The position numbers and the translations under genes were made by a program. A stretch of DNA of 64,000 nucleotides, from positions 683,231-747,230 of the forward strand of contig CAWFCN010000001.1 in assembly GCA_963814415.1 (NCBI GenBank), given 5' to 3'. Origin of the DNA: an uncultured Actinomycetes bacterium (GTDB lineage: Bacteria; Actinomycetota; Thermoleophilia; RBG-16-64-13). The notes under the pieces are model-generated. The model saw nothing but the letters and a program-made list of their open reading frames with translations, had not been told where the DNA came from and did not search any database. Below are positions 9,317 to 46,340 of this stretch, in pieces (positions within the stretch are counted from its first letter, which is position 1; the number at the start of each line of letters is the position of its first letter).

Positions 9317-10474
9317 ATGCAGATACTAAGGAACGTGTTCAAACGCAAGCTGCGGGTGATCCTGACCATATCGGGCATCACCATCGGGGTGTTCGCCCTG
9401 GTGATGATGGGTAGCATGGCCGAGCGCATCAACCTCATGGTCTCGGGCGGCACCCGCTACTACGCCGACAAGGTGACGGTGTCTGATGCCAGCGCGGGTA
9501 TGTTCTCTATCCAGCCGGTACCCTACGACAAGCTCGAAGAGATCAAGGCCGTACCTGGGGTCGCTGAGGTGCAGGGAGAGATAGTCACCCTGCTCGAGAG
9601 TGAGATGACCATGTCCTTCGGCATGCCGGCCATGGTGGCGGGCAGCGACATGCGCGGAGTGGCGTACGAGAGCTTCCAGATCCGCTACGCCCAGGGACGC
9701 GAGCCCAGGGCCGACGAGACCGGGGTGTGCGCGGTAGGCTCGGAGTTGGTCAAGAAGCTGAATGCCAAAGTCGGTAGTTCGGTGACCATACGGGGCGAGC
9801 AGTTCAAGGTGGTGGGCATCATGGAGCAGACCCTCACCGCCCCGGACACCTCTGTCTACATGAGCCTGGCGGATGCGCGCAGCATCTACCTGCAGGATGT
9901 CCCTGTTGCCCTGCGCGATGACACCGAAGCCATAGAGCCGGTCACCGGCTTCACGGTCTACCCCACGCCCGGCACCGACCCCGAAGAGCTGGCCGTGAAG
10001 ATCAACGAGACGGTGGACGGCGTCAAGGCATCGGGGCCCAGCTACTTCCAGGACCAGATAGCCAGCATGACCCGCATCTTCAACTACATACTCTACGGAG
10101 TAGCCCTCATAGCTCTGGTGGTCGGCGGTCTCTCGGTGATCAACACCATGACCATGGCCGTGAGCGAGCGCACCCGTGAGATAGGCATGCGCAAGGCCAT
10201 AGGCGCCTCCGACGGACAGATCGTGGGCCAATTCCTGGCCGAGTCCGGAGTTATTGGCTTCATAGGCGGTGTGACCGGGTTGTTCCTGGGCTGGGCGGTG
10301 TCGGAGCTGGCCAACAAAGCCTTGGAGGCGCAGGCCATGAGCCTCTTCTTGGTCACCCCGCGCCTGGCAGGGGGGTCGGTAGCCTTCGCCATCTTCCTGG
10401 GACTGGTGGCCGGTCTGCTGCCCTCGCTGCATGCTGCCCGCATGAAGCCGGTCGACGCCCTAAGATACGAGTAG
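9317..10474 (+). CDS. ABC transporter permease, FtsX/MacB type
   Basis: N-terminal TM, large extracytoplasmic domain, C-terminal FtsX-like 3-TM bundle. Followed by an ATPase gene 9 nt downstream. Confidence 0.85.
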   Translation: MQILRNVFKRKLRVILTISGITIGVFALVMMGSMAERINLMVSGGTRYYADKVTVSDASAGMFSIQPVPYDKLEEIKAVPGVAEVQGEIVTLLESEMTMSFGMPAMVAGSDMRGVAYESFQIRYAQGREPRADETGVCAVGSELVKKLNAKVGSSVTIRGEQFKVVGIMEQTLTAPDTSVYMSLADARSIYLQDVPVALRDDTEAIEPVTGFTVYPTPGTDPEELAVKINETVDGVKASGPSYFQDQIASMTRIFNYILYGVALIALVVGGLSVINTMTMAVSERTREIGMRKAIGASDGQIVGQFLAESGVIGFIGGVTGLFLGWAVSELANKALEAQAMSLFLVTPRLAGGSVAFAIFLGLVAGLLPSLHAARMKPVDALRYE

Positions 10475-35420: not shown

Positions 35421-35792
35421 CTACCAGCTGGAGCCGCCGCCGCCGTAGCCACCGCTACGGCCGTAGCCGCCACCGCCCCCGCCACCGCCGCCGTAGCCGC
35501 CGCGGCCACCGCCGCCGCCAAAACCGCCGGGGCGACGTTGTTCTTGCTCACGGGCATTGTCGACATTGATGGTGCGACCGTCGATCTCGGCCCCGTTGAG
35601 AGCGGCCTTAGCCGCCTCGGCTGCTTCGGGGGTAGCCATCTCGACGAAGGCGAAGCCTTTGGGGCGTCCGGTCTGGCGGTCGGTGATGATGTTTACCGCC
35701 GATACCTCACCGTGTTCGCTGAACGCCTTCTCCAGGGCTTCCTTGGTGGTGCCGTAGGAGATGTTCCCGACATACAGTCTCGCTGTGCCCAT
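35421..35792 (-). CDS. RRM-type RNA-binding protein with glycine-rich C-terminus
   Basis: RNP-2 LYVGNI and RNP-1 KGFAFVEM motifs, followed by an RGGYGGGGGGGGGYGRSGGYGGGG tail. Confidence 0.85.
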   Translation of the reverse strand: MGTARLYVGNISYGTTKEALEKAFSEHGEVSAVNIITDRQTGRPKGFAFVEMATPEAAEAAKAALNGAEIDGRTINVDNAREQEQRRPGGFGGGGGRGGYGGGGGGGGGYGRSGGYGGGGSSW

Positions 35793-38329: not shown

Positions 38330-39328
38330 ATGGAGCTCTCGCAACTCAAGTACTTCGTCACCATAGCCGAGACCTTGAGCTTCACCGGAGCGGCTGAATT
38401 GGTGCACGTTTCGCAGCCCGCCCTAAGCTACCAGATGAAGCGTCTGGAAGAGGAACTCGGCGTGCAACTCTTCAAACGGCATGGCCGTAGCATAAGCCTG
38501 ACTCTGGACGGACAGGTGTTCCTCCCCATGGCGCAAGGGGTGCTTTCCCGGGCCAACGAAGCCATGAGGACGGTGCGCGACTACTCAGGCGTGGAGACGG
38601 GCGAGGTCACCATGGGCGTCGCGCCTTCGGTGGGAGCCTATCTGATGCCCGGTCTGCTTGCCTCCTTCCACCAGGTGTTCCCTCGAGTGAGGGTCGATCT
38701 TGTGGAAGACGGCGATCAGCAGCTGCAGCACAGAGTCTTCACGGCGGCCATGGACTTCGCGATAGTGGCCGACCCTGGATCAGCCCACTCGTTGGATGTC
38801 GCCGCGCTGGGCTCCGAGGACCTCTTCGCCGTGGTGCCCCCGACGCACCGCCTCGCGGCTTCGCCGATAATCGATCTGGCGGAGTTCCGCAATGACGATT
38901 TCGTCCTTCCCGCCACCTACTACCATCTGACCACCCAGATCGTCCTAGCCTGCCGGCGCGCCGGATTCGAACCCAACGTGGCCTACCACGTCGCCTCTCT
39001 GGAGACCCTCAAGAATCTGGTCCGCGTCGGCCTGGGGGTCTCGGTGCTCCCCAGTGTCGCGCTCGCCGGCTCCAACAGGGAGAACCTGGCGGTCCTTAGG
39101 ATCAAGAAGGGTCTCACTAGGGACCTCTTCATGATAAAAGCCAAGGACCGCGACATCACCCGTGCCGCCCAGGTGCTGCTCACCTACGTGCGGACGTCAG
39201 TGGCGAAGAGTATGACCTACCCGCCCAAGACGCCGCCCCAGCCCGCGCCGCAGCCAGCGCAGCCCGCCGCGCCGCAGCCAGCGCAGCCCGCCGCGCCGCA
39301 GCCTGAGGCGCCCGCCGCCGACGCATGA
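38330..39328 (+). CDS. LysR family transcriptional regulator with Pro/Ala-rich repetitive C-terminal tail
   Basis: N-terminal HTH (TLSFTGAAELVHVSQPALS) and LysR substrate-binding domain. Tail PQPAPQPAQPAAPQPAQPAAPQPEAP. Confidence 0.9.
   Translation: MELSQLKYFVTIAETLSFTGAAELVHVSQPALSYQMKRLEEELGVQLFKRHGRSISLTLDGQVFLPMAQGVLSRANEAMRTVRDYSGVETGEVTMGVAPSVGAYLMPGLLASFHQVFPRVRVDLVEDGDQQLQHRVFTAAMDFAIVADPGSAHSLDVAALGSEDLFAVVPPTHRLAASPIIDLAEFRNDDFVLPATYYHLTTQIVLACRRAGFEPNVAYHVASLETLKNLVRVGLGVSVLPSVALAGSNRENLAVLRIKKGLTRDLFMIKAKDRDITRAAQVLLTYVRTSVAKSMTYPPKTPPQPAPQPAQPAAPQPAQPAAPQPEAPAADA
39247..39303 (+). repeat. 24-bp tandem repeat, 2.4 copies, inside the LysR 3' end
   Basis: gccgcagccagcgcagcccgccgc repeated in tandem, encoding the QPAQPAAP tail. 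Confidence 0.7.
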
Positions 39329-39555: not shown

Positions 39556-40554
<999 letters not shown>

Positions 40555-40658
40555 CTCTACCGTCAACCTCCTCCTACGGATTCGTCCACGCAAAGTACCA
40601 CAAGCGCCCCTGGGCCGCCCGCGCGGCACGCCCCACCGCGACGCATCGGTCACGTCCG

Positions 40659-40742
40659 TTCAAAAACACCTCTGGAAAACGCCGCGCCTTTGACGTACAG
40701 AACTCTGTACGGAATTCCGTACAGAGAAAGCGCAGCGTTTTG
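40659..40742 (+). repeat. conserved palindromic intergenic element, copy C (between ilvN and ilvC)
   Basis: AAAACGCCGCGCCTTTgacGTACAGaactCTGTACGGAATTCCGTACAGagaAAGCGCAGCGTTTT. A near-perfect dyad with homologues at 44866 and 53357. Confidence 0.6.
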
Positions 40743-40774
40743 CACAGCTTCTCCGGATGGCCTATGCACAGTCG

Positions 40775-40830
40775 TCGCCCCGCCGGGTCTGCCGGGGCCG
40801 CCGTCGCCCCGCCGGGTCCGCCGTGCCCGA
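40775..40830 (+). repeat. direct repeat of 17 bp in the ilvN-ilvC intergenic region
   Basis: cgtcgccccgccgggtc occurs twice, 27 bp apart. Confidence 0.4.
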
Positions 40831-40848
40831 CGCGCGCATCGGGCGCGG

Positions 40849-41334
40849 CTAGGTCGCCCGCTTCCCGCGGCTCATCGCCAGGCGGCCGGTGCGCATGAGT
40901 TCCACCACGCCGAAGGGGCTCACCAGGTCGCTGAAGGCGCTCACCTTCTCGCGCGTGCCTGTCATCTCTATCACCAGCACGTCGGTGCCCACGTCGGCCA
41001 CCCTGGCTCCGAAGAGCTCCACCATCTGCATTATCTCGGGTCGGGTGCGCACGTCGGCCCTCACCTTGAGGAGCAGCAACTCGCGCTCCACGCTCTCCTC
41101 GGGGTCGAGCGTGGTGATCTTGAGCACGTTCACCAGCTTGTGCAGCTGCTTCGTGATCTGCTCCACCGAGCGGTCCTGCTCGCCCACGGTTATGGTCATG
41201 CGGGAGAGGCTCTCGTCCTCGGTCTCCGCGACCACCAGGCTATCGATGTTGAAGCCGCGGCGGGCGAAGAGCCCCGCCACGCGGACCAGGACGCCCGGCT
41301 TGTTCTCCACCAGAACGGACAGCGTATGTTTCAT
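40849..41334 (-). CDS. ilvN: acetolactate synthase small (regulatory) subunit
   Basis: ACT domain LSVLVENKPGVLVRVAGLFARRGFNI. ATG at 41334 with GAGGGGAG SD. Confidence 0.9.
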   Translation of the reverse strand: MKHTLSVLVENKPGVLVRVAGLFARRGFNIDSLVVAETEDESLSRMTITVGEQDRSVEQITKQLHKLVNVLKITTLDPEESVERELLLLKVRADVRTRPEIMQMVELFGARVADVGTDVLVIEMTGTREKVSAFSDLVSPFGVVELMRTGRLAMSRGKRAT

Positions 41335-41364
41335 GGCCGCCACTCCCCTCGGGCGTGCGCGCCC

Positions 41365-43058
41365 TCATGGCTCGCGCTCCATCATGTCGTGCACCGACCC
41401 GCCCGCGGGGATCATGGGGAACACGTTGGCCTCGCGGCTGCACCCGGATGTCTATGACTGCCGGGCGGTCGCTCGACAGACCCGCGCGCAGCACCTCTTC
41501 CAGCTCCTCCGGCTTCTCGGCCCGGTAGCCTTCGGCGCCGTAGGCCTCGGCCAGCTTGACGAAGTCGGGCTGGGCCTCCATGCAGGTGTGGCTGTAGTGC
41601 TTGTTCCAGAACAGCTCCTGCCACTGCCGCACCATGCCCAGGTACTGGTTGTTCAGGATGCAGACCTTGACCGGCAGATTGCACTGCACCGCTGTGGCCA
41701 GCTCTTGCAGGGTCATCTGGAACGAGCCGTCGCCGGCGATGTCGATGACCAGGTTGTCCGGGCAGGCCACCTGCGCGCCGATGGCGGCAGGAAAGCCGAA
41801 GCCCATGGTCCCCAGGCCACCGGAGGTTATGAAGCGCCGCGGCTTGGAGAGCTGGTAGTGCTGAGCGGCCCACATCTGGTTCTGGCCCACCTCCGTGCAG
41901 ACTATGGCGTCGCCCTTGGTGACCTCCCAGATCTTGCGCACCGCGGCCTCGGGCATGATGGTGCCGTCGTCGGAGTCGCGCACCACCAGGGGGTGCTTCT
42001 CTTTCCAGGTCTCCACCTGCTTCATCCACGGCAGATGCCGCTCGGGAGGCAGGTCGAGCTTCTTGAGTTCGGCCGTCAGGGCGGCGAGCACACGCTTGGA
42101 GTCGCCCACTATGGGCACCTGCACCGCGACGTTCTTGCTGATCTCGGCCGGGTCCACGTCTATGTGGATGAAAGACGGCCTCGGGAGCGAAGTCCTGCAG
42201 CCGCCCGGTGACCCGGTCGTCGAACCTGGCGCCCACCGCTATGAGCAGGTCGGCCTTGCTGACCGCGTAGTTGGCGTATTGCGTGCCGTGCATGCCCAGC
42301 ATGCCCATGGACAGATGATGGTCTTCGGGGAAGCAGCCCTTACCGGTGAGCGTGGTGGTCACTGGGATATTGCTGTACATGGCCATCTCGCGGAGCTCCT
42401 CGGAGGCGTTCGCGATGATGACCCCGCCTCCGGCATATATGACGGGGCGCTCGGCGGCGGCGATCACGCGCGCCGCCTCGATGATCTGTTTGGGGTGCCC
42501 CTTCAGGTTGGGCTTGTAGCCGGGCAGGCGCATCTCGGGCACCGCGGCGGCGTCGTAGTCCATATCCGCTTTGGTGATGTCCACCGGGATGTCTATGAGC
42601 ACCGGGCCGGGACGGCCCGTGCTCGCTATGTAGAAGGCCTCGCGGATGATGCGGGGCAGCGCCTGCTCGTCCTTGACCAAGTAGCTGTGCTTGACGATAG
42701 GCAGGGTGATACCGGTGATGTCGGCCTCTTGGAAGGAATCGAGACCGATGAGGTGCCGGCTGACCTGGCCCGTGATGGCCACCATGGGCACGCTGTCCAT
42801 ATAGGCGTTGGCTATGGGCGTCACCAGGTTGGTGGCCCCGGGTCCGGAGGTGGCCAAACACACCCCCACCTTGCCCGAAGCGCGGGCGTAGCCGTCGGCG
42901 GCATGCCCGGCGCCCTGCTCGTGGCGCACCAAGACATGGTTGATGTCGGATTGGTAGATGGCGTCGTACAGGGGGATCACCTGTCCCCCTGGGTAGCCGA
43001 ATATCGTGTCGACCCCCTCGCGCCCCAGCGCTTCGAGGATGACTTCAGAGCCTTTCAT
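41365..43058 (-). pseudogene. ilvB: acetolactate synthase large subunit, interrupted by two 1-nt indels (near 42170 and 41437)
   Basis: N-terminal TPP-enzyme domains are in one frame to FAPEAV. A frame switch at the aaa run 42170-42172 restores [15 protein letters not shown] second switch near 41437 restores the canonical C-terminus [21 protein letters not shown], ending in a TGA stop at 41365-41367, 28 nt before the ilvN ATG. Confidence 0.85.
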
Positions 43059-43077
43059 GTCTTTCCCTTCGCGGTTA

Positions 43078-44769
43078 TCAGGGGGCAGTGGGCGTGTCGC
43101 CCAATACCGCCCCAGTCTCAGCCCCGGACACGAAGGCTACGTAGCGGCGCAGCACGCCCGACAACTCACGTGTCGGTCTTTGCCACGCCGATCTCCTCCG
43201 CAACATCTCGTCGTCTGTGACTTTCAGGGTGAGACTCCGCTTGGGGATGTCGATGCTGATAAGGTCGCCGTTCTGCACGAAGGCGATGGGGCCGCCGTCG
43301 ACGGCCTCGGGGGCCACGTGGCCGATGCTGGCTCCGCGGCTGGCTCCACTGAAGCGGCCGTCGGTGATGAGGGCCACACTCTGGTCCAGACCCGCACCGG
43401 CCAGCGCCGAAGTCGGCGTGAGCATCTCGGGCATGCCGGGTCCGCCCTTGGGACCGACATAGCGGATGACCACCACCGAACCGGGCTTGATCTTGTCCTT
43501 CTCGATAGCGGCCATGATGCTGGCCTCGTCGTCGAAAACCACCGCGGGGCCTTCGTGCACGAGCATCTGAGGCAGCACGGCGGACTCCTTGACCACGGCT
43601 CCGTTAGGCGCCAGGTTGCCGAACAAGACCGCCAAGCCACCGGTGGCCAGATACGGACTCGCGAGCGGCTTGATGACGCTGTCGTCATTCACAGTAGCCG
43701 CCTGGTACTGCACGTCGATCCTGACGCCCGCCACGGTGGGCGCCGAGCCGTCGACCAGCTTGGCCTCGGCGAGACGCTTCATGACGGCCATGACGCCGCC
43801 GGCGCGCTGCAGGTCTTCCATGTGGTGATAGCCCGAGGGCGCCAGCTTGACCAGGTTGGGAGTGGCGTCGGCCACCTTGTTGAAGGTCTCGAGTTCGAGC
43901 TTGATGCCGGCCTCTTTGGCGATGGCCAAGAGATGCAGAACGGTATTGGTGGAGCAGCCCAGGGCCGCGTCCACGGCCAGGGCGTTCTTGATACTTGAGT
44001 CGGTGAGAAACCGCCTGATGTTCCAGCCCTTGCGGGCCACCTCCACCGCGGCCGCACCACTCTGCCGCGCCAAGATGAGGCGCGCCGAGTACGGCGCCGG
44101 GATAGTGGCGTCGCCGGGCAGCGACAGACCCAGAGATTCCATGACGCAGCCCATGGAGTTAGCGGTGAAGAGACCGGCGCACGACCCGCAGGTGGGGCAG
44201 ACGGAGTCTTCCAGCTCGGACAGGTCGTCCTCGGACATCTGGCCTTTGAAGTACTTGCCCAAGCCCTCGAAGATGTTGGAGAGGCTGACCTTGCTGCCCC
44301 GGTAGTCGCCGGCCAGCATGGGGCCGCCCGTGACCACCACGGTGGGCACATCCAGGCGCGCCGCGGCCATGATCATGCCGGGCAGGATCTTGTCGCAGTT
44401 GGTGACGAAGACCACGCCGTCCAGGGCGTGGGCCTTGACCATGATCTCCACGGAGTCGGCGATGACCTCGCGCGACACCAGGGAGTAGAACATGCCTTCG
44501 TGGTTCATGGCCAAACCGTCGCAGACGCCTATGACGTTGAACTCCAGCGGCAGACCACCCGCCTGGTAGACGCCGAACTTGACCTGTTCGGCGATGGTAT
44601 TGAGGTGCATGTGCCCCGGGATGAGCTCGTTGTAAGAGTTACAGATGCCTATGAGTGGCCGGCCCGCGTCACCGCGGCCAACGCCGAGCGCGCGCAGCAG
44701 AGAACGGTGCGGCGCGCGCGCCGGACCGGAGTAGACGGACTGACTGGTGCTCTTGGCGCTACTTTTCAC
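43078..44769 (-). CDS. ilvD: dihydroxy-acid dehydratase
   Basis: [10 protein letters not shown], CDKxxPG and Fe-S ligand CPTCGSC motifs. GTG start at 44769 with GGAGAG SD. Confidence 0.9.
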
Positions 44770-44865
44770 AGACGTGCTCTCCAGAGGTGGGGCCGAACGG
44801 CCTTCCAACAGGGCATTCTAGTTTACCCGACATTGGGTGGCTGGGTACATGGTGCATAGGTCTTT

Positions 44866-44958
44866 TTGAACGCATACGCAAACCACTGCGCCTTTTCCGT
44901 ACGGCCCGCTGTACGGTCCGCTGTACGTTGCTCTGTACGTCCAAGGCGCGGCGTTCTG
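44866..44958 (+). repeat. conserved intergenic element, copy A (ilvD/aminotransferase divergent region), with four CTGTACG direct repeats
   Basis: ACTGCGCCTTTTCCGTACGGcccgCTGTACGGtccgCTGTACGttgctCTGTACGtccAAGGCGCGGCGTT. The flanks are inverted repeats of each other. Confidence 0.6.
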
Positions 44959-45035
44959 CATATTTCCCGGAAAGCGCATGTGCACAACGGGCGGCGGGCG
45001 CAGCGCGGCTTCGGAGGTCATGGTAACCTCGCTCC

Positions 45036-46340
45036 ATGACCAACGAAGACCTCACAGCACTTCGCACCGCGAACCTCCCGCGTGGCGTCTCGGCCTCGGC
45101 CCCTGTCTACGTCGCCAAGGCGAAGAATGCCATCGTCACCGACGTGGAGGGCCGCGAATACATAGACTTCGCCGCCGGCATCGGCGTCATGAGCGTGGGC
45201 CACTGCCATCCCAAGGTGGTGGAGGCCATCAAGACGCAGGCCGACCAGTTCTCTCATACCTGCTTCGGCCTGACCGGCTACGAGCCCTATCTGCGGCTGG
45301 CTGAGAAGCTCAACCAGCATGCGCCGGGCGACTCGCCCAAGCGCACCTTCTTCATCAACTCCGGAGCCGAGGCCATCGAGAACGCCATAAAGATCGCGCG
45401 GTACGCCACGCAGCGTCCGGCGGTCATAGCCTTCGAGGATGGGTTCCACGGCCGCACGCTCCTGACCCTCAGCCTCACCTCACAGGTGAATCCCTACAAG
45501 ACGGGCTTCGGGCCCTACGCGCCCGAGGTCTACCGCATCCCCTACGCCTACTGCTACCGGTGCCCCTTGGCCCTCACCTATCCGGCCTGCGGATGCGAGT
45601 GCGCCGAGCTGCTGCGCAAGGCCTTTGACAAGTACGTCAGCGCCGAAGAGGTGGCCGCGCTGGTGGTGGAACCGGTGCTGGGCGAGGGCGGTTTTGTGGT
45701 CCCGCCGCCGGAGTACATGAGCAAGATCGACAAGATCTGCGAGGAGCACAACATCCTGCTCATCGCCGACGAGATCCAGACCGGCATGGGCCGTACCGGC
45801 AAGTGGTTCGCCATGGAACACTGGGGAGTCGAGCCCGACATCCTGGTTACAGCCAAGGCTCTGGGCGGAGGCTTTCCCCTCTCCGGCGTCACGGGCAGGC
45901 AGGAGATCATGGATGCCGTCCATCCGGGCGGGGTCGGCACCACCTTCGGCGGCAATGCGACGGCCTGCGCAGCGGGTCTGGCCGTGTTCGACATCATCGA
46001 GAGCGAAGGCCTTTTGAAGCGGGCCGCGGTGATCGGCGAGCAGATCCGTTCGCGGTTCAGGGCTCTGCAACGGGACTATCCCGTCATAGGTGACGTGCGT
46101 GGGCTCGGCGCCATGGCCGCGGTGGAGTTGGTCGAGGACCGCGAAACCAAGAAGCCCGCCGGCGACTTCGCGAACGCCTTCCGCGCCAACCTCTACCAGA
46201 ACGGCGTGATAAACATCGGCGCGGGCACCTTCCACAACGTGGTGCGCATCCTGGTGCCGCTCACCATCGAGGACGAGGTCCTGATGCGCGGCCTGGACAT
46301 CTTCGAGGCGACCCTGGCTCAGACCGCCGGCCGCGCCTAG
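45036..46340 (+). CDS. class III aminotransferase (4-aminobutyrate aminotransferase-like)
   Basis: PLP fold with ADEIQTGMGRTGKWFA and TAKALGGG (Schiff-base Lys) motifs. Confidence 0.85.
   Translation: MTNEDLTALRTANLPRGVSASAPVYVAKAKNAIVTDVEGREYIDFAAGIGVMSVGHCHPKVVEAIKTQADQFSHTCFGLTGYEPYLRLAEKLNQHAPGDSPKRTFFINSGAEAIENAIKIARYATQRPAVIAFEDGFHGRTLLTLSLTSQVNPYKTGFGPYAPEVYRIPYAYCYRCPLALTYPACGCECAELLRKAFDKYVSAEEVAALVVEPVLGEGGFVVPPPEYMSKIDKICEEHNILLIADEIQTGMGRTGKWFAMEHWGVEPDILVTAKALGGGFPLSGVTGRQEIMDAVHPGGVGTTFGGNATACAAGLAVFDIIESEGLLKRAAVIGEQIRSRFRALQRDYPVIGDVRGLGAMAAVELVEDRETKKPAGDFANAFRANLYQNGVINIGAGTFHNVVRILVPLTIEDEVLMRGLDIFEATLAQTAGRA

Follow-up and report, generated by a model that had tools for sequence, protein, structure and literature searches.

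A putative family of modular palindromic intergenic repeats with a copy in the ilvN–ilvC spacer of an uncultured actinomycete

Among the described systems closest to the element studied here, the mycobacterial interspersed repetitive units (MIRU) are non-palindromic direct repeats of 46–101 bp, with short ORFs that overlap the stop and start codons of the flanking genes, and the boxB module of the BOX elements is about 45 bp long. BOX elements are organized as boxA, boxB(n) and boxC, in such a way that two end modules enclose a variable tandem middle module, and they fold tightly as RNA (PMC3049150). When located inside operons, BIMEs can attenuate the downstream genes (PMC3049150), and REP/BIME elements affect mRNA stability (PMC3184786).

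Here we describe c1, an element located in the ilv operon of an uncultured Actinomycetes bacterium, and its relationship to two further copies, c2 and c3. The window, which is the whole stretch of 64,000 nucleotides (64 kb) that was analyzed, has a GC content of 65% and carries ilvD and ilvB preceding ilvN and ilvC on the same strand, with c1 in the 294-bp spacer between the last two. This location had been proposed in the initial annotation, and both genes were confirmed by NCBIfam, with the longer ORFs 40849–41343 (ilvN) and 39556–40653 (ilvC) as queries; the starts of ilvN (41334) and ilvC (40554) were set from the profile offsets, the sequence, the translation and the alignment with relatives. 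The features of the locus are the following:

38330–39328, plus strand: LysR-type gene, convergent with ilvC
39556–40554, minus strand: ilvC, ketol-acid reductoisomerase, downstream of c1 (NCBIfam)
40555–40604, minus strand: conserved ilvC leader TGTGGTACTTTGCGTGGACGAATCCGTAGGAGGAGGTTGACGGTAGAG, outside the repeat (alignment with relatives)
40641–40777, minus strand (ilv sense): the whole of c1, a long palindrome of imperfect symmetry located between ilvN and ilvC (folds, family HMM and homology)
40676–40691, plus strand: left arm of c1, AAAACGCCGCGCCTTT (arm comparison and nhmmer)
40693–40724, unstranded: central module of c1, three CYGTACRG boxes (pattern scans)
40727–40741, plus strand: right arm of c1, AAAGCGCAGCGTTTT, an inverted copy of the left arm (arm comparison and nhmmer)
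40849–41334, minus strand: ilvN, acetolactate synthase small subunit, upstream of c1 (NCBIfam)
41368–43058, minus strand: ilvB, with two frameshifts (NCBIfam)
43078–44769, minus strand: ilvD (NCBIfam)
45036–46340, plus strand: gabT-like aminotransferase gene, divergent from ilvD

The gene order and the short intergenic gaps suggest that ilvD-ilvB-ilvN-ilvC are co-transcribed. When compared with the intact IlvB (563 amino acids) of the related contig L011, the ilvB gene of the window runs across three frames (tblastn pieces 1–296, 292–557 and 540–563), with breaks near 42171–42184 and 41381–41439 of the minus strand. Indel errors of the long-read metagenome assembly are a more likely origin of these breaks than a pseudogene, and many split genes are also found in another related contig, L010 (ENA ERZ25039527).

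Two other features of the spacer lie beside c1. Of the whole spacer, all relatives have in common only the ilvC leader, a stretch of ~50 nt that immediately precedes the ATG of ilvC: it is identical at 48 of 48 positions between the window and the related contig L024, and near-invariant in all relatives, repeat-bearing or not, with a conservation far above that of synonymous sites. From this alignment, TGTGGTACTTTGCGTGGACGAATCCGTAGGAGGAGGTTGACGGTAGAG may be a translational or leader element for ilvC. Just upstream of c1 there is a perfect 16-bp direct repeat, ACCCGGCGGGGCGACG in the ilv sense, at 40773–40788 and 40802–40817 (29 bp apart), the proximal copy of which overlaps the outer end of c1. 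GC-rich tandem repeats were also observed at 39222–39317 (period 12/24, at the 3' end of the LysR-type gene), 35433–35537 (period 9) and 55814–55933 (21 bp).

The c1 sequence quoted in the initial annotation is present in the window, where it had been described as a near-perfect dyad of 84 bp at 40659–40742. A dyad does exist, as a 66-bp core at 40676–40741 in which arms of 15–16 nt surround three GTAC boxes, but the 84-bp interval itself is not symmetric, with only 18 of the 84 positions paired across its centre. The outer arms are inverted as claimed, with two mismatches and a 1-nt indel between them, and the perfect 20-bp central palindrome is likewise found, as CTGTACGGAATTCCGTACAG at 40705–40724. 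This palindrome, which is formed by boxes 2 and 3, occurs once in the window even when up to three mismatches are allowed, with 0 occurrences expected in shuffles. The GTAC cores start at 40695, 40707 and 40719, with a spacing of exactly 12 bp, and the axis of the arm dyad falls at 40708.5, the centre of the middle box, 6 bp away from the axis of the 20-bp palindrome (40714.5). Thus, c1 combines two overlapping symmetries rather than a single 84-bp dyad. The element extends beyond these arms: the family HMM matches 40634–40775, and the outer flanks are paired in folds of 106–146 nt. Its GC content is 54%, against 65% for the whole window.

The left arm had been reported to be shared, in the same orientation, with copies at 44866 and 53357, and the comparison of these regions confirmed it, with all three copies oriented on the plus strand, and revealed a 50-nt direct-repeat family with identities of 68–82%. 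The two additional copies and their surroundings are as follows:

44851–44990, unstranded: c2, located where ilvD and the gabT-like gene diverge
44880–44895 and 44942–44957: arms of c2
44899, 44911, 44923 and 44935: GTAC of the four boxes of c2
51365–53314, plus strand: acetyl-CoA hydrolase/GNAT gene, neighbour of c3
53360–53456, unstranded: c3, between convergent genes
53368 and 53448: outer TTTCAAA and TTTGAAA of c3
53385–53400: left arm of c3, intact; the right arm is decayed
53404, 53416 and 53428: boxes of c3 (two to three), the last one as GCAC
53501–53899, minus strand: SnoaL gene, neighbour of c3

An nhmmer profile of the arm, run over the 64-kb window, detected five arms with E values of 1e-11 to 1e-13 and no further match, and a search of the window with a full-length profile returned the same three copies and no others. 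The pattern GTAC-N8-GTAC was observed six times in the window, against 0.34 expected, and all six occurrences lie inside c1–c3; no triple GYAC-N8 array was found outside these elements, either in the window or in related contigs totalling ~110 kb. The common layout consists of an outer flank, a 16-nt arm AAAACGCYGCGCCTTT, two to four tandem 12-bp CYGTACRG units, an inverted arm and a second outer flank, for a total of ~100–140 bp; the individual copies measure 97–140 bp, and their 16-nt arms extend imperfectly to ~50 nt. There are three boxes in c1 of the window, four in its orthologues of the related contigs L022 and L024, four in c2 and two to three in c3. The GC content of c1–c3 is 50–57% in the 65% GC background, and all three copies lie within 12.8 kb of the window.

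The contexts of c1, c2 and c3 are co-directional, divergent and convergent, respectively, a variety that is more in line with a dispersed repeat than with a signal specific for ilv. Regarding c3, the terminator hairpin that belongs to the upstream gene (53319–53351) precedes the element. The family occupies any type of intergenic region, changes its unit number in steps of 12 bp, and decays or is lost in sister lineages. The best-supported reading is that of a lineage-restricted, modular palindromic intergenic repeat of the MITE/BOX/REP-like kind. We consider it very probable that c1 is a member of an interspersed repeat family, a term that is drawn here from three copies in a 13-kb cluster plus their orthologues, and probable that it is a copy of that family rather than an operator or attenuator specific for ilv.

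Traces of mobility were also searched for. By eye, the word GGGGCG is seen on either side of c1, a few nt beyond its ends, both in the window and in L022, although it is a common word at 65% GC and the boundaries are fuzzy; no clear target-site duplication was recognized by eye, and nothing like the flanking GGGGCG appears at c2 or c3. In the 64-kb window no transposase or insertion sequence with matching ends was found and no further arm copies were detected, and searches of phage and plasmid collections with c1 and c2 (blastn) gave no match. An exact scan of 185,579 reference genomes with GCGCCTTTNNCGTACNNNNNNCYGTAC produced nine matches, about the chance expectation, and the one inspected, from Desulfovibrio (L003), lies inside overlapping ORFs. 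The same scan gave seven matches in JGI metagenomes, six of which are the same homologous sequence, probably coding, and the last of which is unrelated, and a single unrelated chance match in IMG/VR.

Searches with IlvC, GabT and IlvD placed the organism among the uncultured Actinomycetota, where its relatives were also found, with named matches to Actinomycetia or Thermoleophilia MAGs. The comparison of the spacer in related genomes, pointed to in the initial annotation, gave a divided outcome: c1 is kept at the same site in two of the eight related contigs that cover the spacer, L022 (3622–3774) and L024 (901–1051), whose ilvC genes show nucleotide identities to the window of 95.6% and 92.0%, respectively, and is absent from the other six. 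The element-free spacers measure 54 bp (L013), 65 bp (L014), ~70 bp (L026), 95 bp (L012), 97 bp (L010), 123 bp (L023) and 218 bp (L011), the last one with an unrelated AT-rich palindrome. In a neighbour-joining tree of ilvC the contigs bearing c1 fall in one clade together with L011 and L012, a pattern compatible with a single gain and one later loss or replacement. Both filled and empty orthologous sites were thus seen for c1. Contig L026 is fully syntenic over the stretch bounded by the LysR and PadR genes, and lacks c1, c2, c3 and the SnoaL gene. As the relatives diverge by 5–12% in nucleotide sequence, clean empty sites cannot be rebuilt.

The palindrome of L011 (3285–3335) has the form TTTTCAAAGTG-N13-CACTTTGAAA, and its ends resemble the outer TTTCAAA and GCATTTGAAA ends of c3 (window 53366–53376 and 53444–53456). 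It may represent a second small repeat family, or the shell in which c3 nests. That this insert is a degenerate c1 was discarded, given that the family HMM does not match it, and by eye it shows only a loose similarity in the 5' flank and to the outer ends of c3. On the other hand, the SnoaL-like gene at 53501–53899 of the minus strand is absent from the otherwise syntenic L026 and L027, where the acetyl-CoA hydrolase gene is directly followed by the sensor/PadR pair, and in this comparison the SnoaL-like gene and c3 look like a joint insertion.

The orthologues of c1 in L022 and L024 lack the perfect central palindrome and have CTGTACGGAGTTCTGTACAG (L022) and CCGTACAGAATTCTGTACAG (L024) instead. 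Their GTAC cores are invariant, and only the Y and R positions of the boxes vary. Between the window and L024 the element is identical at 111 of 131 positions (85%), compared with 180 of 260 (69%) for the four-fold sites of ilvC plus ilvN (binomial p = 3.5e-5) and ~57% for the rest of the spacer. Against L022 there is no such excess, with 84% in the element versus 86% at four-fold sites. The excess conservation with L024 could come from gene conversion between copies rather than from function.

The putative role of c1 in the messenger was analyzed through its folding. A long hairpin had been anticipated for the minus-strand ilv mRNA, and a 91-nt structure of −43.2 kcal/mol (z = −5.8) is indeed predicted, with −35.2 kcal/mol (z = −5.7) for the antisense strand. 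Minimum free energies calculated with the flanks were:

c1 of the window: sense −47.2 vs antisense −40.0 kcal/mol
c1 of L022: sense −48.9 vs antisense −31.7 kcal/mol
c1 of L024: sense −48.9 vs antisense −36.1 kcal/mol
c2: minus sense −42.4 vs antisense −41.0 kcal/mol
c3: minus sense −34.6 vs antisense −23.3 kcal/mol

In every copy the minus-sense (ilv-sense) RNA folds better than the antisense through G·U pairs, and the z-scores of the L022 element were −2.75 for the sense and −0.02 for the antisense strand. Each 5' arm was also aligned to the reverse complement of its own 3' arm, with no folding program involved, and the transition mismatches giving G·U versus A·C in the sense strand were in ratios of 7:3, 10:3, 4:1, 3:2 and 5:2 over the five elements. 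This bias is consistent, and it is suggestive rather than significant because the three rows for c1 are related by descent. When the c1 orthologues, three in number, were analyzed with RNAalifold, 39 pairs were kept, with 95.7% of the cells paired, and the covariation detected in these three orthologues was no better than that of shuffles, being matched by 30–50% of them.

If c1 is co-transcribed with ilvD-ilvB-ilvN-ilvC, the messenger would contain, between ilvN and ilvC, an imperfect hairpin of ~40–45 pairs followed by UUUU. Such a hairpin could have a passive role, for which there are three candidates: blocking 3'-5' exonucleases, offering a site for RNase III-type processing, and leaky intrinsic termination. 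Any of these roles would uncouple the transcript levels of ilvDBN from those of ilvC. A specific effect of c1 as an mRNA hairpin is a tentative proposal that we hold to be somewhat less probable than its absence; should it exist, a passive action appears the most likely, and c1 would not be a signal sensing branched-chain amino acids. The initial annotation had suggested an attenuator or a processing/stability site. The second half of this suggestion, extended to leaky termination, is plausible because c1 is kept in two diverged relatives with a better sense fold, whereas a regulated attenuator finds neither an Rfam match nor an antiterminator or a leader peptide.

This last alternative holds that c1 is a dedicated attenuator or terminator for ilvC that tracks the branched-chain amino acid status, its read-through being modulated by a factor such as an RNA-binding protein recognizing the repeated GUAC. 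Folding does favour the transcribed strand, the ilv-sense hairpin is strong, the 3' side of its stem ends in GCGUUUU, invariant in the three orthologues and followed 9–10 nt later by a second U-run, and the repeated GUAC motifs could provide a binding platform for a multimer. Intrinsic terminators consist of a GC-rich stem-loop followed by a U-tract of ~7–9 nt at the 3' end of a gene. In c1 the stem is strong, but the U-run has only 4 nt, partly paired with a 5' AAAA, and a simple consensus terminator scan did not call the main hairpin. The same element is present at c2 in a promoter region that is not transcribed and is not the 3' end of a gene. No alternative antiterminator fold, conserved leader peptide, T-box or other Rfam family was recognized; Rfam gave no match at gathering score across the window and none relevant at E ≤ 5 within 40500–45100. 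Moreover, six of the eight related contigs manage ilvC with the 54–218-bp spacers without the element. Taken together, we regard a regulated attenuator as very unlikely.

A coding function was considered as well, since in the ilv sense a GGAG-N5-GTG opens a frame of 32 codons that runs through the 12-nt units. As each unit equals four codons, its gain or loss would keep the frame, and in the window the Shine–Dalgarno-like GGAG lies 5 nt before the GTG. However, L024 lacks this motif and L022 has a weakened form of it (GAGAAG), downstream of the units the frame shifts between orthologues and reaches different stops, and c2 and c3 would yield unrelated tails. The small ORF was rejected on the grounds that neither its frame nor its Shine–Dalgarno motif is conserved, and a peptide encoded by the element is extremely improbable.

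The initial annotation had also seen in c1 an ideal dimeric operator, a claim that finds no support in L022 and L024, where the 20-bp palindrome is not conserved. A different operator has to be weighed, in which the CYGTACRG boxes, phased at 12 bp, form a DNA array for a putative multimeric regulator that binds cooperatively to two to four near-palindromic boxes, in the way that MetJ binds tandem met-boxes cooperatively. This array would control the divergent promoters of ilvD and gabT through c2, and ilvC through c1. The position of c2 agrees with it: the element is located upstream of both promoters, exactly between their −35 regions, the alignments placing a conserved TAAACT as the −10 of ilvD and, ahead of gabT, a TAACCT at eight bases from the ATG. 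Of the three copies, two are next to ilv genes, the GTAC cores are invariant across the c1 orthologues, and a LysR-type regulator gene is syntenic beside ilvC in all relatives.

Further data in favour of the boxes came from L027, a contig with 92% amino acid identity in IlvD, which carries at 9712–9848 a diverged c2 orthologue. Four YGTACAG boxes are maintained there at the 12-bp phase, whereas divergence has affected the arms and the 5-nt stretches that separate the boxes, and no significant fold is left (z = −0.4 and +0.7). The survival of the boxes without the hairpin is a hint that the boxes, and not the hairpin, may be what matters at c2, and it keeps alive the reading of a regulon carried by repeats. 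At the same site, remnants of the element are found in L010, and L013 has a 129-bp region without it.

Against the operator array, the site of c3, where the 3' ends of two genes meet, offers nothing to regulate, L013 and L026 have the same genes, promoters and LysR neighbour without boxes, and no other promoter of the 64-kb window carries them. Neither the orientation and number of the boxes nor the perfect palindrome is conserved, and 12 bp is not a helical repeat. The similar spacers within arrays (CGTACAGCGGRC in c2, GTACAGAATNT in L027) fit a recent tandem duplication, not selection, and GTAC-N8-GTAC does not fit the T-N11-A box of LysR-type regulators. An operator array is unlikely in our view. 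That the box arrays are the platform of a putative multimeric nucleic-acid-binding regulator of this uncultured actinobacterial genus, acting on DNA at c2 and on DNA or RNA at c1, is likewise decidedly unlikely. If such a platform existed, an operator borne by a repeat would have wired the branched-chain amino acid genes into a new regulon.

Regarding promoters, in the relatives the TAAACT −10 of ilvD is preceded, at a distance of 17 bp, by a TTGAAT −35 box (L013 1790–1815, L010 5925–5950). At 44817–44850 of the window homology is lost immediately upstream of ATGTCG, and sequence that adjoins c2 takes the place of the −35 box, so that the ilvD promoter has been remodelled in the repeat-bearing genome. 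No sigma-70-type promoters were found in or beside c1, c2 and c3. Among the other motifs tried, a sigma-54 promoter in the arms was discarded by eye, since in each copy its GG..GC spacing deviates by one, and spacing misfits also led to the rejection of an ECF-type −35/−10 in the conserved flank TGAACGGACGTGACCGATGCGTC (by eye) and of a LysR T-N11-A box within the units.

Should the repeat-family reading be right, this would be the first description of a small interspersed family of palindromic repeats in this uncultured Actinomycetota lineage, and a natural example of a repeat lodged in an essential biosynthetic operon, with c1 retained over ~4–8% of ilvC nucleotide divergence (~14–31% at four-fold sites). 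Intrinsic termination signals are poorly defined in high-GC Gram-positives, and c1 would provide in these bacteria a case for the domestication of repeat hairpins as intercistronic stabilizers or terminators. For annotation it carries a warning, as c1 resembles an operator or attenuator and yet is not conserved with the operon.

With respect to the known systems, MIRU elements share with the repeat an actinobacterial host, the location in intercistronic operon spacers and a variable number of tandem units, and differ in that neither their direct-repeat form nor their overlapping ORFs are seen here. The REP/BIME elements of enterobacteria are also GC-rich intercistronic palindromes, and their capability to stabilize the upstream mRNA or to attenuate downstream genes is, by analogy, the mechanism that c1 might share. 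REP units, however, are imperfect palindromes of 20–40 nt, often clustered and associated with RAYT transposases, whereas the element described here is 97–140 bp, ~3–4 times longer, with a modular interior.

The resemblance to MITEs such as Correia/CREE of Neisseria, ERIC and RUP is broader, as these share a size of 100–150 bp, terminal inverted repeats and a long RNA hairpin (PMC3184786), and in c1–c3 the arms also enclose a short non-coding core in less than ~400 bp. A GC content below that of the host, presence/absence polymorphism and sites within operons and near promoters are common to both as well (PMC3184786). The differences are the lack of a convincing target-site duplication, for which the GGGGCG flanking c1 is the only candidate, of a known insertion sequence with matching ends, and of an IHF site or promoter motif, together with the internal tandem 12-bp array, which is unusual for MITEs.

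The BOX elements of Streptococcus pneumoniae and S. suis are compared here by layout. A sequence relationship to the repeat, with homology to boxA, boxB or boxC, is not expected between hosts of different phylum and GC content. The middle unit is here a 12-bp sequence with a palindromic GTAC core, and three copies were seen, compared with more than 100 for BOX. The likeness lies in an intergenic, modular organization in which end modules that pair with each other flank a variable tandem middle (PMC3049150), here as conserved arms around two to four 12-bp units, with orthologues that differ by one unit, and in a tight predicted fold when transcribed, with an expected effect on the co-transcribed genes (PMC3049150).
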